Shown: positions 35,164 through 52,465 of the stretch, piece after piece
How the letters are laid out: each line of letters starts with the position of its first letter
Position numbering within the stretch: position 1 is the stretch's first letter
Notes under the pieces: model-generated
The model's input: only the letters and a program-made list of their open reading frames with translations
Databases searched by the model: none
What the model was told of the DNA's origin: nothing
Translations under genes and position numbers: made by a program
Assembly: GCA_041613315.1 (NCBI GenBank)
Contig: JBFJHJ010000014.1
Location: 1 to 64,000, forward strand
DNA: 64,000 nt
Reading direction: 5' to 3'
DNA from: Gemmatimonadales bacterium
GTDB lineage: Bacteria > Gemmatimonadota > Gemmatimonadetes > Gemmatimonadales > GWC2-71-9

Positions 35164-37311
35164 GTGCGCCTCAGGAAATCCCAGCGGCTCAAGAAAGAGC
35201 TCGGGCTCTTCGACGTCTTCGCGATCAGCACCGGCGCGATGTTCAGCTCAGGTTTCTTTCTCCTCCCCGGACTCGCGGCGGCCAAGGCGGGGCCCGCCGT
35301 CGTGCTCGCCTACCTCCTGGCCGGGATCCTGATTATCCCGGCGATGCTGAGCGCGGCCGAGCTGTCGACCGCGATGCCGCGAGCCGGAGGCGCGTACTAC
35401 TTCGTTGATCGCAGCTTGGGACCGCAGATGGGCGCGCTGGCGGGCTTCGGGACCTGGCTGGCGCTGGTGTTCAAGAGCGCCTTCGCGCTGATCGGCATGG
35501 GGGCCTACCTGGCGCTGTTCGTCCATCTGCCGATCGAGCCGCTCGCCGTGGGACTGACGCTGATGTTCGTCGCGCTCAATGTGGTTGGCGCGAAGGAGAC
35601 CACGGGATTCCAGAAGGTGCTGGTGTTCGTCCTGATCGCGGTGCTGGCCTTCTTCCTCATCCAGGGTCTGGCGGCGGTTGCCTCGATGGGGCCGTCCCGG
35701 GTGGCGCGCGAACAGTTCACGCCGTTCGCCCCCTTCGGCCTCACCGGCCTGGTTGCGACCGTGGGCTTCGTGTTCGTGTCCTACGCCGGTCTAACGAAGG
35801 TGGCGAGCGTGTCCGAGGAGGTCAGCAAGCCGGACCGGAACATCCCGCTCGGCATGTTGCTCTCGCTCGCCGTCACCACGGTCATCTACGTCCTCGGCGT
35901 GATGATCATCGTGGCCGTGCTCGAGCCCGAGGCGTTGCATGGCGACCTCACCCCCGTGGCGACCGCGGCCCAGGCGTTCTTCGGTTGGCTCCCGGGCGCC
36001 ACCGGTATCGTGCTCATCGTGATCGCCGCGATCGCCGCGTTCGCCTCTACGGCCAACGCCGGCGTGATGGCGGCGTCGCGCTATTTGCTGGCAATGGCGC
36101 GCGACCGGTTGCTGTGGGGCGCGTTCGCCCGCTTGGGGCGGTTCCACACGCCGACCCTGGCGGTGCTGGCCACCGGCGCGGCGATGGCGCTCATCGTCAT
36201 CGTGATCGATCCCGAGGGCGTGGCGAAGCTGGCCAGCGCGTTCCAACTGCTGATGTTCGCGCTGCTCAACATCGCCGTCGTCGTGATGCGGGAGAGTCAC
36301 ATCGAATCGTATGATCCGGGCTACCGCTCGTTCGGCTACCCCTGGGTGCACCTCGCCGGCATTTTGGTCTACCTCGGCCTCATTGTGATGCTGGGGTGGT
36401 GGCCCATCGTGTTCACCGCCGGGGTCGTGGTGGTGGGGCTGGCGTGGTACGTGTTCTATGCGCGCTCGTCGGTGGTTCGCTCGGGCGCAATCTACCACGT
36501 GTTCGAGCGACTCGGCCGACAGCGGTTCGTCGGCCTCGATCACGAGCTGCGCGAGATCATCCGGGAGAAGGGATTGCGGGACGAAGATCCCTTCGACGAG
36601 GTCGTGGCCAGGGCCTACGTGCTCGACGTACCCGATCGCGAGCGCCTGACCACGCTGATCCGGCAGGCGTCGGCGCGACTCCACTCACGGCTCCCCGTGA
36701 CCGGGGAACAGCTCGTGAAACAATTCATCGCGGGACTGGAAGGTGGCCTCACACCGGTGGCGCACGGCGCCGCCCTGCTCCATACCCGTGTGCCGGGCGT
36801 GCCGACGTCCGAATTGGTCCTGGGACGCGCGCCCCGTGGCGTGGAGTGGGACGCGACCGCGGTGGCCACCGACGGCATGCCGGTGCAGGCCGTGTTCTTC
36901 CTGGTGAGCGGCCAGGACAATCCCGGCTGGCACCTCCGCATCTTGGGCGCCCTCGCCGGGCGAATCGAGGAAGACGATTTCATTCCGAGTTGGCTCGAGG
37001 CGGAAAACGACGAGGCGTTGCGGGCGACACTGCTCCGGGGCGATCGTGTGCTCACACTCGCGATCCAGCGCGACGGCGCCACGGAGGCGCTCGCGGGGCA
37101 CGCGTTGCGCGAGATCACCCTGCCACCGGGCATCCTCGTCGCCCTGATCCGCCGCCACGGTGACAGCATCGTGCCGAGAGGGAGCACGGTGTTACGGGCG
37201 GGGGATCGGCTCACCGTCATCGGCGAGCCGGAGAGTCTCCGGCGGCTGGCGCGACAGTACGCCGATGCCATTCCCCCGGTCGAGGAGAGCGGGCCGGAGG
37301 GGGTCGCCTGA
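35164..37311 (+). CDS. APC amino-acid permease fused to PTS EIIA-like and TrkA-C (RCK-C) domains
   Basis: GAMFSSG, AELSTAMPRAGG and SEEVSKP; TPVAHGAALLH; IRR...IVPRGSTVLRAGDRLTVIG. Confidence 0.87.
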   Translation: MRLRKSQRLKKELGLFDVFAISTGAMFSSGFFLLPGLAAAKAGPAVVLAYLLAGILIIPAMLSAAELSTAMPRAGGAYYFVDRSLGPQMGALAGFGTWLALVFKSAFALIGMGAYLALFVHLPIEPLAVGLTLMFVALNVVGAKETTGFQKVLVFVLIAVLAFFLIQGLAAVASMGPSRVAREQFTPFAPFGLTGLVATVGFVFVSYAGLTKVASVSEEVSKPDRNIPLGMLLSLAVTTVIYVLGVMIIVAVLEPEALHGDLTPVATAAQAFFGWLPGATGIVLIVIAAIAAFASTANAGVMAASRYLLAMARDRLLWGAFARLGRFHTPTLAVLATGAAMALIVIVIDPEGVAKLASAFQLLMFALLNIAVVVMRESHIESYDPGYRSFGYPWVHLAGILVYLGLIVMLGWWPIVFTAGVVVVGLAWYVFYARSSVVRSGAIYHVFERLGRQRFVGLDHELREIIREKGLRDEDPFDEVVARAYVLDVPDRERLTTLIRQASARLHSRLPVTGEQLVKQFIAGLEGGLTPVAHGAALLHTRVPGVPTSELVLGRAPRGVEWDATAVATDGMPVQAVFFLVSGQDNPGWHLRILGALAGRIEEDDFIPSWLEAENDEALRATLLRGDRVLTLAIQRDGATEALAGHALREITLPPGILVALIRRHGDSIVPRGSTVLRAGDRLTVIGEPESLRRLARQYADAIPPVEESGPEGVA

Positions 37312-41881: not shown

Positions 41882-42700
41882 GTGACCTATTCCCTCGCGC
41901 TCCGTTACGCGTTGTGCGATCGTCCGGTCGAACTCGTGACGGACGATCCGGCGCTCGCCGAGCCGCTCCGACGGCTGTTTCCGGCATACGTGACGAACGG
42001 GGCCGCTCCGGCGAACCCGGACGTCGCGATCCGGCGTGCGGGCGACGGCTATCGCGTCGCGATCGGCTCGGGAACGCCGACCCTCTGCCGTACCGTCGTC
42101 GAGGTGATGGAAGTCAGCGAATTCGCGTTGTGCGAGGCCCTTCTCACGTCATGCCGCCGGTACATCCACGTGCACGCAGCCGGCGCGATCATGCACGGCG
42201 GTGCCGTGCTCGCGCTGGGGCGTGCGGGTGCGGGGAAGTCGAGTCTCGCCGTCGCGTGGAGCCGGCGTGGCCACGCGGCCCTGGGTGACGATATCGTGCT
42301 GCTCGACGTCGAGGGACGGGCACTCGCCTTCCGGCGGCTGTTCAAGGTGCACCCCGCGCTCCTGCAGAGGGTCGACGTGGACCTCGACAACACGCCGTTC
42401 TGGGTACCGGGGAGCACGGATGCGTGGTACGACCCCTCGGTGAGCGGCGGTTGGGTGGACGAGGCGCGGATCCGGGCCCTCGTGCTCGCGCGCTATCGCA
42501 CCGGCCGCCCGCTCGCGATCACCGAAGCGTCCTCTGCGGACGCGCTGAACGCGTTGGTGCACAGCGTCCTCCCGTCGGGCGTGCGCCGGCGCGCCGCGTT
42601 CGACACGCTGTGTCGGGTGGTGGCCGGAGCCCGCGCGTGGGAGGTGACGTTCGGCGACGTGGTGGCGGCCGCCCAGGCCCTGGAGGACCTCACCGCGTGA
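41882..42700 (+). CDS. HPr-kinase-like (P-loop) kinase
   Basis: HVHAAG, GRAGAGKSS Walker A and LGDD motif; start uncertain. Confidence 0.82.
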   Translation: MTYSLALRYALCDRPVELVTDDPALAEPLRRLFPAYVTNGAAPANPDVAIRRAGDGYRVAIGSGTPTLCRTVVEVMEVSEFALCEALLTSCRRYIHVHAAGAIMHGGAVLALGRAGAGKSSLAVAWSRRGHAALGDDIVLLDVEGRALAFRRLFKVHPALLQRVDVDLDNTPFWVPGSTDAWYDPSVSGGWVDEARIRALVLARYRTGRPLAITEASSADALNALVHSVLPSGVRRRAAFDTLCRVVAGARAWEVTFGDVVAAAQALEDLTA

Positions 42701-43854: not shown

Positions 43855-44136
43855 ATGACGAGCGACGACCGCCGGGGGTCCCCCACCCGCCGCGACGACG
43901 TGGTGTTCCGCCAGCTGGACGACGATTGGGTCATCTTCGATCCCACGACCGATCGCCTGCACTCGCTCAACCTCTCCGCGGCGTTGATCTGGAGTCACCT
44001 CACGGGCGAGATGGATCTCGAGGAGATCGCCGCCGCGGTGGGAGCCACGTTCGATCCGCCCGTCTCCGGCGACCGGATGCTCGGCGATGTCGAAGTGGCC
44101 GTAGCCCGCTTCCGGGCCGAGGGCCTTCTCGCGTGA
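43855..44136 (+). CDS. PqqD-family RiPP recognition element
   Basis: VVFRQLDDDWVIFD..HSLNLSAALIW..L.G...EEI...F....DV......EGLL. Confidence 0.9.
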   Translation: MTSDDRRGSPTRRDDVVFRQLDDDWVIFDPTTDRLHSLNLSAALIWSHLTGEMDLEEIAAAVGATFDPPVSGDRMLGDVEVAVARFRAEGLLA

Positions 44137-45293
44137 GCGCCGCGTACTACCGCGATCTCCTCGCCCAGCGGGAGCGGATCGAAGCGTTCCGCCGGGCGAT
44201 CGCCCGCGTCGTGCGGCCCGGCGACCGCGTGCTGGATGTGGGAACCGGGCTCGGGACGTTCGCCTTCTTCGCGGCGGACGCGGGGGCGACGAAGGTCTGG
44301 GGCGTGGACGGCGATCCGGTCATCGCCACGGCGCGCGCCGTGGCCCGCGCGAACGGCTATGCCGGGCGTGTCGAGCTGATCCGGGGCTGGCTCCCCGAGA
44401 TCGAGCTGCCCGCTCCCGTTGACGTGATCATCTTTGAAGATCTCCCGAACCGGCTGGTCAACACTCGGGTGCACGGCCTGCTCCGGGCCGTCCACGACAG
44501 GTACGCGGTGCCGGGGGCGCGGACGGTGCCGGAGGCGGCCGAGGTATACCTCGCCCCGGTCCGCTCGGACGCCCTCTGGCGCACGGTCATCCCGTTCGGC
44601 GAGGGCACGCCGTACGGGATGGATTGGACGCCGCTCCGCGCGCTCGTCGCCAACCTGCCCCTCGACGGTTCCATTCCTTCCGGAGCGCTGGTGGGCGAGC
44701 CGGCGTCGCTGGGCGTCGTGCGGTTCGACGAGGTGCCGGACGCCGCCGCGCTGGGTGGTGAGACCGTCTGGCGGCTGGCCGGCTCCACGACGATCCACGG
44801 CCTCGCCTACTGGTTCGACTTGGACCTGGGAGGGGGGGAACGGCTGTCCAATGCTCCCGGCGCGTTTCCCGCCTCGTGGGGGCACCTGTTTCTCCCCCTC
44901 GATCCTCCGCTCGAGGCTGTGGGCGAGGTGCGGGCCCGCGTGCACGCGCACCGGTTCGCTGACGGCGCGCCGGGGTGGCTCAGTTGGGAGGTGACGGTGG
45001 GGGGGCGTACGGTGCGCGGGCACGAGTTCGCCGCCGAGCCGGCCTCGCTGGCCGATCTGCAGGCGGCGGCGCCTGATGGCGTGCCCCGGCTGAGTCCCCG
45101 AGGGGCGCTCGAGGGCCGTGTGTTGGCGCTCACGGACGGGCGCCGGACGATTCGCGAGATTGCACGGCAGGTAGCGGCGGAGCATCCCGCCCTCGCCCCG
45201 GCGGCGGCGGAGCGGCTTGTCGCCCGGGTGTTGGCGCATAGAATAGCGAGTGGCGACGTCCTCGCCACGGTGCACGACGGGAGTGCGAGATGA
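44133..45293 (+). CDS. PRMT-fold SAM methyltransferase with a C-terminal RRE/wHTH-like domain
   Basis: R.EAFRRAI, VLDVGTGLG, VDVIIFE, IHGLAYWFD, SNAPG..ASW; tail LTDGRRTIREIA. Confidence 0.82.
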   Translation: MSAAYYRDLLAQRERIEAFRRAIARVVRPGDRVLDVGTGLGTFAFFAADAGATKVWGVDGDPVIATARAVARANGYAGRVELIRGWLPEIELPAPVDVIIFEDLPNRLVNTRVHGLLRAVHDRYAVPGARTVPEAAEVYLAPVRSDALWRTVIPFGEGTPYGMDWTPLRALVANLPLDGSIPSGALVGEPASLGVVRFDEVPDAAALGGETVWRLAGSTTIHGLAYWFDLDLGGGERLSNAPGAFPASWGHLFLPLDPPLEAVGEVRARVHAHRFADGAPGWLSWEVTVGGRTVRGHEFAAEPASLADLQAAAPDGVPRLSPRGALEGRVLALTDGRRTIREIARQVAAEHPALAPAAAERLVARVLAHRIASGDVLATVHDGSAR

Positions 45294-45526
45294 GCGATTC
45301 CGACCGGCGGGAGTTCCTGAAGAAGCTGGCCAAGACGGCCGTCTATTCGGCGCCCGTCATCGCGAGCCTGGCGGCGCCGATCGAGCTGGTGGGCCAGGGA
45401 CAGTCGCCGACCCACAAGCACCATGGAGGCTCGGCGTCGCCGACGTCGCAGGAGCTGCCGCCCAATCCACAGCCCGGCGGGCCGCCCCCGTGGGACCAGC
45501 CGCCTCCGGGGGGGCGCCGGCGGTAA
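45290..45526 (+). CDS. Putative RiPP precursor with a twin-arginine-like leader
   Basis: ATGA overlap and RBS GGGAG; DRREFLK, YSAPVI, Ser/Thr/His/Pro-rich tail. Confidence 0.75.
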   Translation: MSDSDRREFLKKLAKTAVYSAPVIASLAAPIELVGQGQSPTHKHHGGSASPTSQELPPNPQPGGPPPWDQPPPGGRRR

Positions 45527-45558: not shown

Positions 45559-45594
45559 CGAGCGCCCGCGCGCCCTCCGGCGTGCGGGCGCTCG
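45559..45594 (+). terminator. 16-bp stem-loop closing the RiPP-like operon
   Basis: cgagcgcccgcgcgcc-ctcc-ggcgtgcgggcgctcg; no clear U-tract. Confidence 0.55.
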
Positions 45595-45654: not shown

Positions 45655-47085
45655 ATGGATCGGTTCGATCTCATCGCGATTGGTGGCGGCACTGCGGGGC
45701 TGGTGACGGCCGCGGGCGGTGCGGCGCTGGGCCTCCGGGTGGCGCTGGTGGAGCGCGCGGCGCTGGGCGGCGATTGCCTGTGGACGGGCTGTGTGCCCAG
45801 CAAGGCGCTCATTGCGTCCGCCCGGCTCGCGCACCAGATGCGCCACGCGGACCGCTTGGGGCTCATTGGCGCGTCGCCAGCGCATGCGTTCCGCTCGGTG
45901 ATGGAGCGGATGCGGGCCGCCCGAGCGCGCGTGGCGCAGCATGACGACCCCGAGCGGTTCCGGCGAATGGGCGTGGAGGTGATCCTGGGCGCCGCTCAAG
46001 TCACGGGAGAGGGACGCGTCGCCGTGGACGGACGGACGATTGCCGGGAAGCATCTCCTGGTCGCGACGGGTGCCGAGCCGTCCGTGCCCCCGATTCCCGG
46101 TCTCGCCGAGGCCGGCTACCTCACGTATCTGGCGGCGTTCGACCAGGACACCCTGCCGCCACGGATCGCCGTGCTGGGCGGCGGGCCCATCGGGCTGGAG
46201 TTCGCGCAGCTCTATCGCCGCTTGGGCGCCGACGTGACGGTGCTGGAGATGCTGCCCCAGTTGCTGCCCCGCGAAGAGGACGAGGCGTCGGCCGTGGTCC
46301 ACGCGGCGCTCGACGCGGAAGGCATCGGTGTGCTCACCGGCGCGCGGGTCGCGGGTGTCGAGACGCAGCCGGACGGTGCAAAGGTCGTGCGCGCGGCGTG
46401 TGCGAGCGGGAATGGTGAGGCGCTGGCGGTGACGGTGGATGAGATCTTCGTCGCCACCGGCCGGCGGGCGATCGCCGATCGGCTGGGACTCGCCAGCGCG
46501 GGCGTCGAGGTCGAGCGCGGCGCGGTGACGGTGGACCCGGCGCTCCGATCGACGCGCCGTGGCGTGTGGGCCGCCGGCGATGCCGCGGGCGGCCCGCAGT
46601 TCACCCACGTGGCGGAGTATCACGCCAAGATCGTGTTACGGAACATCGTCGCGCCGTTCACCGCGAAAGTCGACTACCGCTCGGTGCCGGCCGTGACCTA
46701 TACCGATCCCGAGGTCGCCCGCGTCGGCCTCACCGAGGCCGAGGCCCGCGAGCGCTACGGCACCGTGGAGGTGTACCGCTACGCGTTCGCGGATCTGGAT
46801 CGGGCGATCGTGGACGGCCACACCGATGGGTTCGTGAAGGTGGTAACGCACGGCCGGGGCCGGATCGTGGGGGCGACCGTGGTCGCGAGCGGCGCCGGCG
46901 AGCTGCTTCAGCCGCTCGTGCTGGCGATGGCGCAGGAGATCCCGCTGCCGAAGCTGGCGCGAATGGTCTACCCCTACCCCACGATGGTGGAGGGCGTGAA
47001 GCGGACCGCCGACGGCTACTACCGCTCGAGGTTCACCGGGTGGAGGGCGCGTCTCGTGAAGCGGGTGGCACGGTGGCTGGCGTAG
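45655..47085 (+). CDS. Pyridine nucleotide-disulfide oxidoreductase (Lpd/MerA-like)
   Basis: IGGGTAG, GGDCLWTGCVPSK, GGGPIG and YPYPT. Confidence 0.9.
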   Translation: MDRFDLIAIGGGTAGLVTAAGGAALGLRVALVERAALGGDCLWTGCVPSKALIASARLAHQMRHADRLGLIGASPAHAFRSVMERMRAARARVAQHDDPERFRRMGVEVILGAAQVTGEGRVAVDGRTIAGKHLLVATGAEPSVPPIPGLAEAGYLTYLAAFDQDTLPPRIAVLGGGPIGLEFAQLYRRLGADVTVLEMLPQLLPREEDEASAVVHAALDAEGIGVLTGARVAGVETQPDGAKVVRAACASGNGEALAVTVDEIFVATGRRAIADRLGLASAGVEVERGAVTVDPALRSTRRGVWAAGDAAGGPQFTHVAEYHAKIVLRNIVAPFTAKVDYRSVPAVTYTDPEVARVGLTEAEARERYGTVEVYRYAFADLDRAIVDGHTDGFVKVVTHGRGRIVGATVVASGAGELLQPLVLAMAQEIPLPKLARMVYPYPTMVEGVKRTADGYYRSRFTGWRARLVKRVARWLA

Positions 47086-47783
47086 GCCGGGCGCGTCCGT
47101 GGCTGAAACTCGCGCTGCTCGCGGCGATGCTGGGGGTGGCGGTGATCGTGGTGCGGTTCTCTCCGGCGTCGCGCTACGTGACACAGGAAGGCGTGTTGGA
47201 CCTGCTCCGGGCGGTCAGGGGATCGGGCTGGGCGCCGGTCGTCTTCGTCGCGCTCTACGCGGGCGCCACCGCGCTGGCGTTTCCCGGATCGCTGCTCACG
47301 ATCGGCGGCGGTGCGGTGTTTGGATTCGGGTGGGGAGTGGTGTTCAACACGATCGCCGCGAACATCGGTGCCAACGCCGCCTTCGGCCTGGCGCGTGCGC
47401 TGGGGCGTGACGGGATCGAGCGACTGGTGGGGAAACGCTTGGCGGGCCTCGACCGCGCCACTCAGCGACACGGGTTCACGGGACTCCTGATCCTGCGGCT
47501 CATCCCGCTCGTCCCGTTCAATGCGCTCAACTTCGGTTCGGGGCTCACGGCCATGCGGTGGCGGGATTACGCGCTCGCCACCGTGATCGGTATCTTCCCG
47601 GGGACGCTCATCTACACCTTCTTCGCGGACGCGCTCGTGGCAGGGTCGACGGAAGCCGGCGCCGCGGCGCGGACGCGCCTGTGGATCGCCGGCGGGCTGC
47701 TCGTGGCGCTCTCGCTGGTGCCGATCATCGCGCGGCGCCTGGGGTACAAGCCACCATCGGACCGCACACACGAGGCCGCATGA
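47073..47783 (+). CDS. TVP38/DedA (SNARE-associated) membrane protein
   Basis: FPGSLLTIGGG..FG, LRLIPLVPFNALN and GIFPGT. Confidence 0.88.
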   Translation: MAGVGRARPWLKLALLAAMLGVAVIVVRFSPASRYVTQEGVLDLLRAVRGSGWAPVVFVALYAGATALAFPGSLLTIGGGAVFGFGWGVVFNTIAANIGANAAFGLARALGRDGIERLVGKRLAGLDRATQRHGFTGLLILRLIPLVPFNALNFGSGLTAMRWRDYALATVIGIFPGTLIYTFFADALVAGSTEAGAAARTRLWIAGGLLVALSLVPIIARRLGYKPPSDRTHEAA

Positions 47784-48604
47784 CTGGATGGGTTCACCGC
47801 GTGCTGCTCACCGCTGCCCTGCTCGGCGGGGCGGTGCCCGGCGTGGCGCAAGAGCTGCCCGATCCCGCGGCGTTCACCGCGGTGCTCCAGCGGTACGCAC
47901 ACGGGGACCTCGTGGATTACGCGGCCCTCCGCGCGGACCGGGCGGGGCTCGATGCCTTTGTCGCCAAGCTGGGGCGCACGGATCCCGCGGCGCTGGAGCG
48001 CGCGTCGCGCGAGACGCAGCTCGCCTTCTGGATCAATGCGTACAATGCCTGCGCGCTCACGCTGGTGATCGACCACTACCCCATCAAGCCCGCGGGCTTC
48101 CCGGCGTCGCTGGTTCGCTCGCTGCAGGGCGTGCCGGCGAACTCGATCCGACAGATCCCCGACACGTGGACGCGGACGTTCTGCCCCGTGGCCGGCGCCC
48201 CGCGGGCGCTGGACGAGATCGAGCACGAGATCCTGCGCCCCATGGGCGAGCCTCGCATTCACTTCGCGGTGAACTGCGCCTCGCGCTCGTGCCCGGTCCT
48301 CGCCACCGAGGCGTACACCGGCGAGGCGATCGACCAGCAGCTGGATGCCGCGGTGCGGCGCCTCATCGCCGATCCCCGACAGTATCGCCTGGAGCGCAAC
48401 GGCACCGCCGTCCTGCGCCTCAACAAGGTGCTCGACTGGTACAAGGACGATTTCGGCGGCACGGCCGGCGTGGTGGCGTTCCTCCGCCCGTACTTACCGG
48501 CGGACGACGCGGCGTATATCGCCACACACGGGCCGCCGACCGTGGGGTACCTGCCCTACGACTGGACGCTGAACGACACGGCGGTGTTCACATCCGGCGG
48601 CTAG
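47780..48604 (+). CDS. DUF547 protein
   Basis: VDYAAL, AFWINAYNA, IEHEILR, RIHFAVNCASRSCP and YDWTLN. Confidence 0.92.
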   Translation: MTGWVHRVLLTAALLGGAVPGVAQELPDPAAFTAVLQRYAHGDLVDYAALRADRAGLDAFVAKLGRTDPAALERASRETQLAFWINAYNACALTLVIDHYPIKPAGFPASLVRSLQGVPANSIRQIPDTWTRTFCPVAGAPRALDEIEHEILRPMGEPRIHFAVNCASRSCPVLATEAYTGEAIDQQLDAAVRRLIADPRQYRLERNGTAVLRLNKVLDWYKDDFGGTAGVVAFLRPYLPADDAAYIATHGPPTVGYLPYDWTLNDTAVFTSGG

Positions 48605-48606
48605 CC

Positions 48607-49293
48607 GTGCCCCCGCTCGGCGTCGTCATTCCCACTCTCAACGAGGAGCCTTACCTCCCGGGTCTGTTGGACGATCTCGGCCGGCTCGCCGTGCCGGCGG
48701 ATGTCGTCGTGGTCGATGGCGGCTCGACGGACGGCACCGTCGCCGTCGCCCGGCGACACGGTGCCCGAACGGTGACGGCGGCGCGTGGGCGCGCGACGCA
48801 GATGAACGTCGGCGCACAGATCGTGGCGGGCGATTGGCTGTGCTTTCTTCACGCCGACGTGCGGCTGATCGACGATGCCCGGCGGGAGCTTGCGCTCGCC
48901 GTCGAGGGGGGGGACCTCCAGGTCGGGGTCTGGCGTCTGGCGATCGAGGGGGCCGGTGTGGCGCTCCGCGTGATGGAACTCGGGGCCTGGGTGAGGGACC
49001 GTCTGGGCGGTCTCCCGTACGGCGACCAGGGACTCGTGGTGCGACGGGATCTGTTTGCGGCGGTCGGCGGCTTCGCCGGGATTCCGATCATGGAGGATGT
49101 GGCGATGGTGCGGGCGTTGCGGCGGCGCGCCCGCGTGCACCGGTTCCGCTCCGCGGTGCGGGTGTCGCCTCGGCGGTGGCGGCGGCAGGGCCCGTGGCGC
49201 ACATGGCTGCAGAACATCGCGCTCCTTGCCGGCTACCTCGCCGGCGTCTCACCCCAGCGGTTGTCGCGCTGGTATCCGCCCGAGCCCCGATGA
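48607..49293 (+). CDS. GT2 glycosyltransferase (TIGR04283-like)
   Basis: VIPTLNE, VDGGSTD, GRATQMNVGA, FLHAD, YGDQG and IMED. Confidence 0.9.
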   Translation: MPPLGVVIPTLNEEPYLPGLLDDLGRLAVPADVVVVDGGSTDGTVAVARRHGARTVTAARGRATQMNVGAQIVAGDWLCFLHADVRLIDDARRELALAVEGGDLQVGVWRLAIEGAGVALRVMELGAWVRDRLGGLPYGDQGLVVRRDLFAAVGGFAGIPIMEDVAMVRALRRRARVHRFRSAVRVSPRRWRRQGPWRTWLQNIALLAGYLAGVSPQRLSRWYPPEPR

Positions 49294-49883
49294 CCGCGGT
49301 CCTGTTGTTCGCCAAAGCGCCGCGGCCGGGGCGGGTCAAGACGCGCCTGGCGGCGGAGATCGGAGAGGCCGCGGCGGTCGCGGCGTATCGGGCGGTGGGC
49401 GCGCGTGTGTCGTCACAGGTAGGAGCGCGGTACCCGCTCACAGTCTGGTACGATCCCCCCGACGCACTGGAAGAGATGCGTGACTGGCTCGGCGATTGGG
49501 TGTACCGGCCGCAACGCGGCGCCGACCTCGGCGAGCGGCTCAGGCACGCCTTCGCGGCCCACTTTGCAGACGGGGACGCGCCGGTGCTCGCGATCGGGGC
49601 GGACGCGCCTGACGTCCGCGCCGACACTATCGCGGCGGCCCACGCGGCGCTGGCGACCGCGGATGTGGTTCTGGGACCGGCCGTCGACGGCGGGTACTAC
49701 CTGATCGGCTTGGCGCGGGACCAGCCGGGGGTGTTTGCTGGCGTGCCGTGGGGTGGGGCGGACGTGATGCGGGTCACACTCCATCGCTGCCGGCGTCTCG
49801 GGGTGCGCGTGCGACGACTCCCCGTCCTGCGCGACCTCGATACGGTCGCCGATCTCCGCACATTTGGTGATTTTCTACCTTGA
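49290..49883 (+). CDS. DUF2064 / TIGR04282-like transferase
   Basis: FAKAPRPGRVKTRL, DLGERL, IGAD.P, GPAVDGGYYLIG and DLDT. Confidence 0.9.
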   Translation: MTAVLLFAKAPRPGRVKTRLAAEIGEAAAVAAYRAVGARVSSQVGARYPLTVWYDPPDALEEMRDWLGDWVYRPQRGADLGERLRHAFAAHFADGDAPVLAIGADAPDVRADTIAAAHAALATADVVLGPAVDGGYYLIGLARDQPGVFAGVPWGGADVMRVTLHRCRRLGVRVRRLPVLRDLDTVADLRTFGDFLP

Positions 49884-49954
49884 CCCAACCCGTTGCGGGG
49901 ACGCATATTGCCAAACCCGCCCTAGCGCGACGGACCCGAGCGAGGTGTTGGACG

Positions 49955-50200
49955 ATGGCGTGGAGAGTGATCGAGGCTGGTGAGGAAGTCTGGCATGTGC
50001 AACCCGCCGCCGAAATGCGCCCCGACGTGCGAATGTGGCGGCTGATGCTCTCCTTTCGCGCGCAAGCCAGTTCCCGCGAGCGTGAATCGTTCTGGGCGCC
50101 CTACCCGCTCGAGTCGAGCTCGAAGTCCTCGCTGTTCCAAGCCGCGGACCGTATCTCGAACGACGCCCTGAAGGAAGTCCTCGCACAACATCTCGGCTGA
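49955..50200 (+). CDS. Hypothetical protein
   Basis: RBS GAGGTG; globular-looking 81-aa ORF. Confidence 0.65.
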   Translation: MAWRVIEAGEEVWHVQPAAEMRPDVRMWRLMLSFRAQASSRERESFWAPYPLESSSKSSLFQAADRISNDALKEVLAQHLG

Positions 50201-50215
50201 GCGTCAGGGCGCCGC

Positions 50216-50473
50216 GTGTCCGTCACACCCGTTCAGGATCTGCGACGCATCGCCGAGGCCGTGGAGCAGCTCCACGGGCGCACCGTCCACGACGTCGAGA
50301 TCCGCTCCGACTGTCGGGTGCTGCGGGTGCTGCTCACCGACGGCGAGCAGCTCCTGGTGTCGGTGGTGGTCGACGATACCGGGAAGCCGCGGCTGGACAT
50401 CGATCTACTGCACGCGGTAGACGACGCGGCGGCGCAGGGGCAACTCGAGGTCCGGTTCCAGGACCTCGACTAG
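50216..50473 (+). CDS. Hypothetical protein
   Basis: Operonic spacing; host-like codon usage. Confidence 0.65.
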   Translation: MSVTPVQDLRRIAEAVEQLHGRTVHDVEIRSDCRVLRVLLTDGEQLLVSVVVDDTGKPRLDIDLLHAVDDAAAQGQLEVRFQDLD

Positions 50474-50492
50474 CGGGTGGCACGGAGGCGGC

Positions 50493-50912
50493 ATGACGGT
50501 GGGCGCTCCTCGGCGCGAACGCGTCCGGTTTCTCGAGTTCGAGTTCAACCGTCTTCCGAGCGGGCGCTGCCGGTCACGGGTGGTGCTGGAGCGCCACGCC
50601 GGCGAGAGCTTCGTCGGCACGGCGGAGGGGTTGGGCTCCCAGGCGGGTGAGCTGCGCTGCGCGGCGCAGGCCGCGGCGAAGGCGCTCGAACGCGCGGTGG
50701 ACAACAAGCTCACCTTCGAGCTGCTGGGAGTAAAGGCGGTGCGCGCCTTCGATGCCATGGTGGTGATCGTGTCGCTGTCGTGTCACAACGGGACACCGCC
50801 GACGCGACTCGTGGGGTCCTGCCTCTCGGAGCATGACCACCACCGGTGTGCGGCGCTGGCGGTGCTGAATGCCACGAACCGGCTCCTCGGCAACATGATC
50901 TTCATGCGGTAG
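50493..50912 (+). CDS. Hypothetical protein with an internal twofold beta-beta-alpha repeat
   Basis: RBS GGAGG; FVGTAEG..RCAAQA and LVGSCL..RCAALA. Confidence 0.72.
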   Translation: MTVGAPRRERVRFLEFEFNRLPSGRCRSRVVLERHAGESFVGTAEGLGSQAGELRCAAQAAAKALERAVDNKLTFELLGVKAVRAFDAMVVIVSLSCHNGTPPTRLVGSCLSEHDHHRCAALAVLNATNRLLGNMIFMR

Positions 50913-50917
50913 CGACG

Positions 50918-52465
50918 ATGGCAACCAGGATGTATCGAGACATGTGGCGCATGGTGGTCGCGACGACCGGTGTCGCGGTCGCCGCCGCCTGTGCCGGCGG
51001 GGCCCACGACGCGGCCCTGGCGCCGGCGGGCGGGGGCATGGCCGTGCTCGGCGATTCCATCGGGCTGGACGCCGCCTGGCCCGTCACGCCCGAGGACTCC
51101 GCCGCGGACGAGGCCGCGCTGCTCGCCATCCAGGCGCTCGAGTTCAAGAGCCTCGCCAAGGGTGCAGAGCACGTTCGCGGGATCGTCTCGGCGCCGGCGA
51201 CTCTGTCGCACGATGCCGTCACGGGCGTGCTGCGGCTGGGAGACGGCCCCCGTGGAGGAGCGGCCAGCGCGTCGGGGCCGAACTACGACATCGACGTCGA
51301 GTCGTTCCTCGACCACGACCGCGTTCAGTACTACATCGACTATTTCCTCGACCCCACCCGCGAGCGCTTCGAGATCTGGCTGGGGCGCCTCGTGCGCTAC
51401 GAGGGCATGATTCGCGCGCGGTTCCGGGCGCTGGGCGTCCCCGAGGACATGGTGTATCTCGGGATCATCGAGAGCGGCTACTCGAACACCGCGGTGTCCC
51501 GCGCGAGCGCCGTCGGCATGTGGCAGTTCATTGCGTCTACGGCCCGCCGCTACGGCCTCATCGTCGACCAGTGGGTGGACGAACGCCGCGACCCGTTCAA
51601 GGCGACCGACGCCGCCGGCCGGTATCTGGCGGACCTGAACCGACAGTTCGGGTCGTGGTACCTTGCTGCCGCTGCGTACAACGGCGGGGAGGGCCGGGTG
51701 TCCCGCGGGATTCGCCGCCTCGCCGGCGATCCGGACTCGCTCACCGACGAGACGTTCTTCCACCTCGCGGAGCGGCGCTACCTGCGACGCGAGACGCGGG
51801 ACTATGTGCCGAAGCTGATCGCGGCGGCGCTCATCGCGAAGGACCCGGTCCGCTTCGGTTTCGACAGCGTCCCCGAACTCCAGCCGCTGGTCTTCGACGA
51901 GATCACCGTGCCCGACGCCACGGGGCTCGACGTCATCGCGCGGCTGGCGGACACGACGACCGGGGCGCTCGTGGAGCTGAACCCGCACCTCGTGCGGCGC
52001 GTGTCCCCCCCAGGGCGCCCGTCCATCGTCCGCGTGCCGCGCGGCACCGGGCCCCTCGTGGCCCGACGCTACGTGGACCTCCCGGAGAGCGAGCGCGTGA
52101 ACTTCGTCGAGCACGTGGTGCGGCGGGGTGAGACGCTCTCGGAGATCGGACGGCGCTACCGCGTGGGCGTGATGCTGCTCCGCGCGGCCAACGGGAATGT
52201 CGACCCGCGCCGGTTGCGGATCGGGCAGCGCCTCATCATCCCGCTGAGCGTCGACGGCCGGGAACGGGCGGTGTCGGGGCGTGCCCCGGCGCCCGCTCCG
52301 GGCGTGCCCGGCGTGACGTATCACATCGTGCGCCGCGGGGAGTCGCTCTGGGCGATCTCGCGCCGCTACGGGATCGGTGTCAACGACCTGCAGCGCTGGA
52401 ACGGGATTGGCGCAAGCGAGGTGCTACGGGTCGGCCGGCGGCTACGGGTGGCTCCGCCGGGATAA
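50918..52465 (+). CDS. MltD-like lytic transglycosylase with two LysM domains (lipoprotein)
   Basis: IESGY, GMWQF, DERRDP, AYNGGEG and ETRDYVPK; HVVRRGETL and HIVRRGESL. Confidence 0.93.
   Translation: MATRMYRDMWRMVVATTGVAVAAACAGGAHDAALAPAGGGMAVLGDSIGLDAAWPVTPEDSAADEAALLAIQALEFKSLAKGAEHVRGIVSAPATLSHDAVTGVLRLGDGPRGGAASASGPNYDIDVESFLDHDRVQYYIDYFLDPTRERFEIWLGRLVRYEGMIRARFRALGVPEDMVYLGIIESGYSNTAVSRASAVGMWQFIASTARRYGLIVDQWVDERRDPFKATDAAGRYLADLNRQFGSWYLAAAAYNGGEGRVSRGIRRLAGDPDSLTDETFFHLAERRYLRRETRDYVPKLIAAALIAKDPVRFGFDSVPELQPLVFDEITVPDATGLDVIARLADTTTGALVELNPHLVRRVSPPGRPSIVRVPRGTGPLVARRYVDLPESERVNFVEHVVRRGETLSEIGRRYRVGVMLLRAANGNVDPRRLRIGQRLIIPLSVDGRERAVSGRAPAPAPGVPGVTYHIVRRGESLWAISRRYGIGVNDLQRWNGIGASEVLRVGRRLRVAPPG

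Follow-up and report, generated by a model that had tools for sequence, protein, structure and literature searches.

A putative Tat-type leader with an RRE-docking motif in a peptide-modification cassette of Gemmatimonadota

The closest described counterparts of the system treated here belong to the RiPPs, which are peptides made on ribosomes and modified after their translation. According to the main text of Popov et al. 2026 (PMC13381572), the systems for linear polyphosphorylated peptides (LPP) of Bacillota comprise LppA/K/B/S/D/N; N33 and D70 of LppB bind the Pro and the Tyr of a YxxP motif, the exchange N33A almost abolishes the complex, and LppK phosphorylates Ser3 of its core. The published description of the kinase BsfK likewise gives core Ser3 as the phosphorylated residue, with a reaction that is boosted by its RiPP recognition element (RRE) and that needs a His, the Walker A motif and an Asp-Asp pair (PMC10368454), and the account of PsmN names D134 and D136 as needed for hexose addition to phospho-Ser (PMC6993621; review PMC8498205). 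Here we analyse a gene for a 78-residue peptide on a stretch of 64,000 nucleotides (the window; positions 1 to 64,000 of contig JBFJHJ010000014.1, assembly GCA_041613315.1, from a Gemmatimonadales bacterium), which is preceded on the same strand by four genes for an HPr-kinase-like protein, a nucleotidyltransferase of the NTP_transf_5 family, a PqqD-family RRE and a methyltransferase.

We propose that the peptide is the precursor of a linear modified peptide, and that its first 35 residues, the predicted leader, would have two functions, the docking of the RRE and export as a signal for the twin-arginine translocation (Tat) pathway, a reading that we consider, on balance, probable. The likely product is a secreted, phosphorylated and probably methylated peptide that is made without a dedicated protease or pump.

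The open reading frame is a real, conserved gene and not a chance one. Translation of window positions 45290-45526 of the forward strand gives exactly the 78-residue sequence quoted in a previous, sequence-only reading of this DNA, and the elements listed there are all present, namely RREFLK (residues 6-11), YSAP (19-22), two SPT repeats (39-41 and 50-52), HKHH and GGRRR. The ATG overlaps the stop codon of the methyltransferase gene (ATGA), and the base composition is of the coding type, as in the neighbouring genes, with a GC content of 0.89 at third versus 0.58 at second codon positions. Each gene of the cassette is single-copy in the host genome (2.63 Mb, 83% complete), of which the window occupies part of contig C14. 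Scans of Pfam and NCBIfam assigned the peptide to no family, and the match to TIGR02811 formate_TAT is weak (13 bits vs a cut-off of 48). A search with the sequence alone brought up 39 candidates at E<=1, of which 36 were other proteins, each at E<=2.4e-7, and profile searches found 181 relatives (120 of them listed), with 132 representatives at 50% identity; the named relatives are hypothetical proteins of Gemmatimonadota. Three unnamed clusters in the ESM Atlas, at 0.91-0.92, have a low recognition value and serve as a lead only.

The pooled set comprises 236 proteins, of which 226 fit a leader pattern requiring [RK][RK] and [YF]xxP. Of the other ten, four carry Trp and one Leu, three are truncated or damaged, and the remaining two are a fusion and a false positive. 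All core counts below refer to 223 cores, and the subsets at 50% identity hold 122 leaders and 119 cores. As the sequence-only reading had anticipated, the leader is kept and the cores vary widely, and the conservation of the gene that it had called for is borne out by the pooled set and by the linkage to the cassette in Gemmatimonadota. Several members of the set stand out. P0215 was rejected as a repeat-protein false positive. P0190 (446 residues) is a methyltransferase whose C-terminus continues into a complete precursor, with a junction that looks out of frame and may be a sequencing or frameshift artefact. A core subfamily with CxxxPxxC or CDYxPxxC occurs among P0111, P0178, P0192, P0211-P0213, P0221 and P0233, others having Gly-Met or His runs, and at L055 (G357:C10, 7783-8310) two tandem precursor genes stand behind one cassette, one core with Cys (CDYFPTIC) and the other with Gly-Met repeats.

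The leader is built like a Tat signal in that an RRxFLK-type motif near the N-terminus is followed by a moderately hydrophobic, uncharged region and a predicted signal peptidase I site (Table 1). The best 13-residue hydropathy after the Arg pair is 1.85, with 16 uncharged residues, as compared with 1.36-2.06 and 12-23 in the nine Tat signals of the genome that pass the Tat profile TIGR01409. The hydrophobic stretch had previously been called weak for a Tat signal; it is not, because it lies within the range of these nine native signals, none of which contains YxxP. The Tat-like motif that had been noted is indeed widely kept, and the peptide is not picked up by the profile TIGR01409. In the same way YxxP can be retained as an RRE motif, given the matching Asn/Asp pair in the RRE discussed below, and the more specific form YxxPxL has to be given up, since the strict Leu occurs in just 5 of 226 leaders and the motif reads YxxPxI/V here. 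The family consensus downstream is YxAPV[VI]x[ST]LAAPxxLx[GA]Q. Among the 122 representatives, 118 have Arg-Arg, 105 RRxF, 110 YxxPx[LVIAFY], 108 the (-3,-1) site and 82 Gln at +1. Of 31 offsets compared, the predicted one has the string [AVLI]x[AG]Q in 154 leaders, and none of the others has it in more than six. Under a looser rule for small residues, offsets +9 (185/226) and +18 (154/226) would fit as well, so that the assignment of the cleavage site rests on the Gln together with the strict rule. Cleavage between G35 and Q36 is predicted to leave a core of 43 residues, which is also the family median. The host genome encodes TatC and two LepB-type peptidases; together with the conserved site and the lack of a conserved protease or transporter in the cassette, this agrees with the earlier suggestion that Tat export and signal peptidase could take the place of dedicated enzymes.

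The peptide gene is linked to its partners, and three junctions of the cassette overlap by 4 bases. A scan of GTDB genomes yielded 21 loci from 241 pattern matches, 18 from Gemmatimonadota and three of a Sulfurimonas type. The order kinase-nucleotidyltransferase-RRE-methyltransferase-peptide is found in 17 of the 18, and the remaining locus, L022, keeps RRE-methyltransferase-peptide. At L019 (6142-10004) the methyltransferase gene runs into an unrelated domain and its 3' part reappears 2.6 kb further on beside an N, pointing to an insertion or an assembly artefact. The system is patchy, because only 19 of 401 genomes matched in a scan of the phylum, a number that includes the host itself and one false positive, L050 (G369), where the pattern had matched a long binding protein's Tat signal. 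Of 16 further loci, seven have all five genes, three lack the nucleotidyltransferase, two have only RRE and kinase, one only the kinase, one only the methyltransferase (at a contig edge), and two have no partner (one at a contig end). Thus, one or more partners are kept at 14 of the 16, and the genes there are arranged in four different orders or more. Pfam scans of flanking reading frames (78 proteins; 66 of 127) revealed no cyclase, B2 protease or conserved exporter, no Asn_synthase or Transglut_core3 match was found among the frames scanned around the cassettes, and no MsbA-like transporter occurs in the cassette of the window or among the frames scanned from L012-L029.

Related peptides also occur outside Gemmatimonadota. 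AxA sites and a shorter spacing from Arg-Arg to Tyr are found in the peptides of the three Sulfurimonas-type loci and in a second peptide of genome G380. With these as seeds, a scan of metagenomes yielded 43 loci out of 134 matches (several near-identical, two repeating GTDB loci; GC 0.28-0.65), at which a kinase is nearby in 33 cases, an RRE in 27, either of them in 36, a nucleotidyltransferase in four and a methyltransferase in none. Because of these neighbour counts, kinase, RRE and a Tat-type YxxP peptide are regarded as the core of the system, and nucleotidyltransferase and methyltransferase as accessories. Sites of the form [AV]xA are present in 36 of 42 peptides, 30 of these 36 with a Ser or Thr within six residues. 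Kinases and RREs of this set remain below all NCBIfam cut-offs, and no cyclase or B2 match was found among the 60 scanned of 110 flanking reading frames from 20 metagenome loci. On the high-GC contigs L105-L116, an RRE-peptide-kinase unit with Lys/Pro-rich cores stands directly after pheST-ihfA-merR.

The sequences of the partner enzymes fit the proposed chemistry. H98, the Walker A motif GxxGxGKS and D136-D137 of the kinase are invariant in 17 homologues, as are G90, D107 and D109 (Asp-x-Asp) of the nucleotidyltransferase, for which no close solved relative was found; the two enzymes keep the residues that are required in BsfK and PsmN. The best solved relatives of the RRE are TbiB1 (2e-12), TfuB1 (1e-9) and PDB entry 9x8z (7e-9). 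N39 is present in 22 of 22 homologues and D78 in 21 of 22, and they align with an Asn and an Asp in 9x8z that, because they are 37 residues apart, probably correspond to N33 and D70 of LppB. A complex prediction for the RRE with peptide residues 1-45 scored 0.48, and a control with the RRE replaced 0.35.

The methyltransferase is predicted to have the complete fold of protein arginine methyltransferases (PRMTs), Rossmann domain plus beta-barrel. The model has a mean predicted local distance difference test score (pLDDT) of 87.9 and a Foldseek E value of 4e-26, and its superposition on CARM1 gives Z 28.8 and a root-mean-square deviation of 3.3 over 296 aligned residues, the first non-PRMT row having Z 12.9. 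The S-adenosylmethionine (SAM) binding motif is kept, and E102, the first Glu of the double-E loop, is found in 18 of 18 homologues, with an invariant Asp beside it. At the second double-E position the homologues have Gly (eight), Ala (six), Thr (two), Asp (one) and Glu (one), and thus the Glu is not conserved. The THW loop reads (G/A)SW; in PRMT5 the equivalent of THW is FSW. The C-terminal domain resembles a degenerate RRE at an hhalign probability of only 9% (E 0.0035), and the profile match ends before this domain in L057, L061, L062 and L067. Enzymes of the AerE/PoyE type, which methylate Asn, were not among the 50 rows of a wide fold search with the methyltransferase.

In the cores, Ser at positions 2-6 is enriched, its count comparing with a mean of 85 and a maximum of 102 after shuffling within cores (92 of 119 representatives vs 44), and position 4 is the commonest place of the first Ser; since relatives are not independent, the shuffle figures are not probabilities. 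S39 is a likely phosphorylation site because Ser in this region is conserved. The other acceptor sites proposed previously are not features of the family. The sites proposed had been the two SPT repeats, with GGRRR or HKHH as methyl acceptor. Two SPT repeats exist in one of the 223 cores, that of the query, and any SPT in five, and only the first Ser, S39, is at the conserved position. GGRRR is again confined to the query, and arginine methylation is doubtful because Arg-free cores are common (58 of 223); the enzyme, in addition, has no second Glu in its double-E loop. HKHH also occurs in the query core alone, and what survives of that proposal is the enrichment of Lys at core positions 4-12 (147/223 vs 76 in shuffled cores). 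Many cores consist of runs of His or of Gly-Met, many others have neither, Lys, His or Met stands at core 4-12 in 210 of 223, and Met makes up 5.9% of core residues.

Table 1. Positions of the precursor gene, its predicted elements, the partner genes and promoter-like sequences in the window
Feature	Position	Strand	Basis or conservation
Precursor peptide gene, 78 residues	45290..45526	+	Translation, codon composition, homologue searches
Twin-arginine motif RREFLK (residues 6-11)	45305..45322	+	RR 222/226, RRxF 206/226 (Lys also admitted by the selecting pattern)
Putative RRE-docking motif YSAPVI within the hydrophobic region (residues 19-24; relative to the predicted cut, Y is -17 and P is -14)	45344..45361	+	YxxPx[LVIAFY] 212/226
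Predicted signal peptidase I site L33-V34-G35/Q36	45386..45397	+	[AVLI]x[AG] at this offset 207/226; Gln +1 162/226
Ser39 (core position 4), predicted phospho-acceptor	45404..45406	+	Ser at core 2-6 in 188/223
C-terminal motif PWDQPPPG (residues 67-74)	45488..45511	+	PW 149/223 vs shuffle mean 36, max 53; PP[PG] 173/223
HPr-kinase-like peptide kinase, 272 residues from inferred GTG start (longest reading frame begins 41765)	41882..42700	+	PF07475 weak; TIGR04352 51.7 bits vs cut-off 200
NTP_transf_5 nucleotidyltransferase-like enzyme (PsmN/LppN-like), 372 residues	42697..43815	+	PF14907 82.5 bits, over cut-off
Stand-alone PqqD-family RRE (lasso B1/LppB-like), 93 residues	43855..44136	+	PF05402 over cut-off
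PRMT-fold SAM-dependent methyltransferase, 386 residues, extra C-terminal helical domain (~300-386)	44133..45293	+	Profile matches PRMT6 at 2e-41
Promoter-like element TTGCCC-16-TAATCT, 7 nt before RRE start codon	43820..43847	+	Similar element in 13/19 loci, mostly 6-8 nt before RRE start; no background rate computed for the pattern
Sigma-70-like element TTGTCG-16-TAGAAT in methyltransferase gene end, 45 nt before peptide ATG	45217..45244	+	Single such site in 4.3 kb

The proposed pathway would begin in the cytoplasm with the binding of Y19-x-x-P22-x-I24 by the RRE, the step in which we have the greatest confidence. With assistance of the RRE, the kinase would then probably phosphorylate Ser39, possibly several times, and the nucleotidyltransferase, which is missing from some cassettes, might place a sugar or a nucleotide on the phosphate, although this must be regarded as somewhat doubtful. 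There is a good chance that the methyltransferase acts on the peptide, and it can be suggested, quite tentatively, that the methylated nitrogen would be that of a nearby Lys or His after the Ser (K43 here) and not of the C-terminal Arg run. After release from the RRE, the unfolded peptide would leave through Tat, housekeeping signal peptidase I would cut between G35 and Q36, and the mature product would be a periplasmic peptide of 43 residues with an N-terminal Gln, presumably cyclised to pyroglutamate; export, cleavage and product, taken together, appear fairly probable. The Tat pathway suits substrates that must be finished before export, and it accepts short, unfolded, hydrophilic peptides. 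Because YxxP sits inside the hydrophobic region, binding of the RRE would also delay export, for which dedicated Tat chaperones offer an analogy. A more far-reaching, and clearly more speculative, extension that we would put at slightly below an even chance is a RiPP class across phyla whose RRE-binding leader is nothing other than the Tat signal: the RRE would mask the hydrophobic region, in the manner of a Tat proofreading chaperone, until kinase, nucleotidyltransferase and, in Gemmatimonadota, the PRMT-fold enzyme have finished, the last with a rebuilt active site that methylates a nitrogen of Lys or His, or another one outside Arg. Export and maturation of the product would then fall to Tat and signal peptidase I as housekeeping systems.

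It should be noted that several observations weigh against this pathway. When the genome is scanned with the profile TIGR01409, the peptide is not picked up, and the profile matches only 3 of 37 family members, with a best E of 0.12. The leader counts are partly built in, because the sequences were selected by their leader with a pattern that required [RK][RK] and [YF]xxP, and the relatives are not independent of each other. Lys, Arg and His are all missing from six of the 223 cores, and no conserved residue fixes the target of the methyltransferase. At L059 (G132:C58, 7768-8169) a precursor-like peptide has no partner within 13.7 kb, and at L061, as the sole case, an ABC transporter gene directly follows the peptide. 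LppN, in addition, was inactive in a heterologous host (main text of PMC13381572). The peptide of L059 has repeated CxxNPxHPxC units and lies near msrA/msrB.

A Tyr at -17 is the spacing known from lasso leaders. It would be compatible with an RRE-presented peptidase acting in trans, and the most serious competing explanation starts from there: the peptide could be a RiPP precursor that remains cytoplasmic or leaves by another route, RRxFLKKLA would be an enzyme-docking amphipathic helix, and the leader would be removed, as in LPP and lasso systems, by an unlinked peptidase that the RRE presents. The position of the Tyr resembles a cut that is measured from the RRE (the Y of LppA is at -16 in the main text of PMC13381572), and the missing TIGR01409 score and the transporter at L061 can be read in the same way. 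The lasso B2 family PF13471, moreover, with no match in the host genome (83% complete) or in the three Sulfurimonas-type genomes, is matched elsewhere in five of five near-complete relatives. Four of these matches are weak and lie in frames of 546-686 residues, the one inspected being a protein of 536 residues, and the fifth is a gene of B2 size in G158 that lies 81 kb from the cassette, beside an RRE of its own and a nucleotidyltransferase-like gene. SipW-type peptidases (TIGR02228) were found neither in the host genome nor in the five relatives. The leader, furthermore, keeps Arg-Arg itself and not just any basic pair, has small residues at -3/-1 and Gln at +1, with Thr at -2 in just 6 of 226 leaders, and the spacing between Tyr and the AxA site is not constant across the wider set (mostly 18 or 20), which suits a membrane-bound signal peptidase more than a ruler. 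A trans-acting protease is thus an unlikely general solution, and we regard the cytoplasmic precursor as a whole as improbable. The fifth match belongs to a separate small cassette (L117, G158:C1, 4173-6703) of a 280-residue reading frame, the RRE, the lasso-B2-like protein and the nucleotidyltransferase-like gene, and no cyclase-sized or obvious precursor frame was seen in the 10.5 kb there. The host genome has two Asn_synthase genes, on other contigs and unlinked to the cassette.

Other alternatives accept part of the proposed pathway and differ in what the product is for. An exported carrier or anchor, in which phospho-Ser would be the attachment point of a glycan built by the nucleotidyltransferase and unlinked glycosyltransferases and the tail a spacer, shares RRE binding, Ser phosphorylation and Tat export and cleavage with our proposal. 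It would be in keeping with the requirement of PsmN for hexose on phospho-Ser described in PMC6993621, the LPP clusters in capsule loci mentioned in PMC13381572, the proximity of Sulfurimonas-type metagenome loci to wza and wzc (9 and 7 of 43), a GT2 gene right after the kinase at one Gemmatimonadota locus (L063), and the fact that cores share little besides the Ser and the Pro-Trp tail. However, no wza/wzc-type gene was among the reading frames scanned in the 18 Gemmatimonadota loci, at least three cassettes that keep kinase, RRE and methyltransferase lack the nucleotidyltransferase, and the downstream glycosyltransferase block travels with a reductase found in 10 of 18 loci, so that this explanation seems a little less probable still than the cytoplasmic precursor. 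A periplasmic metal-buffering role, with His- and Met-rich cores as interchangeable ligands whose binding is tuned by modification, would resemble that of bufferins, which are described as signal-peptide RiPPs that bind copper (PMC11626156), and could account for the abundance of Lys, His and Met in the cores. Nevertheless, no conserved metal-resistance or metal-regulator gene was seen beside the cassette, many cores have no run of His or Gly-Met, and the wider family is mostly not His/Met-rich; we give this role slightly less weight again, and it concerns the function and not the biosynthetic route and would be compatible with the latter. That the gene encodes an ordinary small Tat-secreted protein behind unrelated enzymes, or is spurious, might be argued from the missing family assignment, the weak formate_TAT match and the locus without partners, but the linkage across gene orders and phyla, the absence of YxxP from the ordinary Tat signals and the matching Asn/Asp in the RRE make it hardly conceivable.

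Two promoter-like elements lie within the cassette (Table 1). The one before the RRE gene would make a leaderless RRE transcript possible. For the element in the end of the methyltransferase gene, 13 of 19 loci have a counterpart ahead of the peptide gene, as compared with 3 of 162 control windows. Its TTG is carried by a Leu codon for which the rare CTT is used in 13 of 15 cases, against a background of 4% and a next-highest value of 18% among 25 Leu columns; an internal promoter, which is likely at this place, would raise precursor output. About 55 nt upstream, within the methyltransferase gene (about 45152-45166), a conserved ATTGC coincides with the codons for 'EIA', and every Ile in the column uses ATT or ATA, a codon bias similar to that at the Leu column, which may mark a second regulatory site. 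An inverted repeat with perfect arms of 11 bp and a loop of 14 nt (45559-45594) begins 33 nt after the peptide stop codon; it has no T-run, was not listed by a terminator scan, and could be a transcript stabiliser or terminator.

Further downstream (45655-49883) the window contains genes for a MerA-like/dihydrolipoamide-dehydrogenase-like reductase, a VTT protein, one protein of no assigned family, and the 'arsenosugar' glycosyltransferases TIGR04283 and TIGR04282, both over cut-off. This block is regarded as an insertion and was rejected as part of the system because the reductase is found in just 10 of 18 loci, and the same holds for an upstream M14 peptidase, near the cassette in 2 of 18. 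Three small conserved reading frames (about 82, 85 and 139 residues) without a Pfam match precede an SLT-LysM transglycosylase gene (49880-52465), a block by which the cassette's place in the chromosome can be recognised in most relatives, and at 35164-37311 an amino-acid permease is fused to phosphotransferase system EIIA_2 and TrkA-C domains.

The chemistry of kinase, RRE and nucleotidyltransferase is already known in itself. If the proposal is true, its significance lies in joining RiPP leader recognition with quality control of Tat export, and in offering a concrete candidate substrate of a PRMT-fold enzyme from bacteria that differs in its active site from the arginine-methylating kind. 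The five genes would form a testable system, and a portable leader could take arbitrary peptides through modification and secretion. In the literature searched, from which subscription journals were largely absent, neither a Tat-leader RRE system nor a PRMT-fold RiPP enzyme was found. With eukaryotic PRMTs (PRMT6, CARM1, PRMT5) the methyltransferase shares the whole fold, the SAM motif and the first double-E Glu; it differs in the second Glu, the Asp by the first Glu, the (G/A)SW loop, the additional C-terminal domain and its place in a bacterial cassette. The HPr-rel-A system (kinase TIGR04352, PqqD-family chaperone TIGR04353), which no paper found in that literature names, is similar in pairing kinase and PqqD protein without lasso enzymes, and TIGR04352 is the best NCBIfam match of the kinase, but the scores of the kinase (51.7 bits) and of the RRE (22.7 bits) fall far short of the respective thresholds of 200 and 35 bits, and NCBIfam has no model for the precursor. 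Bufferins, as described in PMC11626156, are likewise RiPP precursors with a general export signal that is cut by signal peptidase and without a dedicated exporter; their signal, however, is of the Sec type and dispensable for modification, and their chemistry is that of Cys and MNIO, in contrast to a Tat-type signal with an RRE motif inside it and a kinase, nucleotidyltransferase and methyltransferase.

The lasso tailoring enzymes described for paeninodin (PadeK), pseudomycoidin (PsmK/PsmN) and Bradymonas (BsfK/BsfB1/BsfN) belong to the same three families and have the same catalytic motifs (PMC8498205, PMC6993621, PMC10368454), and the RRE is closest to lasso B1 structures. Nevertheless, the product cannot be a lasso peptide, because the cassette has neither cyclase nor B2 protease, the leader has no conserved Thr at -2, and Asp or Glu at core positions 7-9 occurs in only 23 of 223 cores. 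The greatest likeness is to LPP, with a stand-alone RRE carrying the Asn/Asp pair, an HprK-like kinase, an NTP transferase, a YxxP leader, a variable core with Ser just after the cut, no macrolactam cyclase and, as predicted here, cleavage by an enzyme of the signal-peptidase type. The main text of PMC13381572 makes no mention of Tat, signal peptides, methyltransferases or Gemmatimonadota in a search for these terms, and its supplements may list further clusters. As described there, LPP clusters of Bacillota encode a SipW-like peptidase and an MsbA-like pump, neither of which is conserved here; their leader reads YxxPxVLxHQxIxFETxxS, with no twin-arginine or hydrophobic region described, whereas the leader here shares only YxxP and the downstream Ser with it, has a full Tat-type signal, and is accompanied in Gemmatimonadota by a PRMT-fold methyltransferase. 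Thus, measured against that description, the system works like LPP but departs from it in three defining features, the peptidase, the pump and the leader consensus, and chemistry of the LPP type, described in 2026 for Bacillota, would extend to Gemmatimonadota and Campylobacterota.

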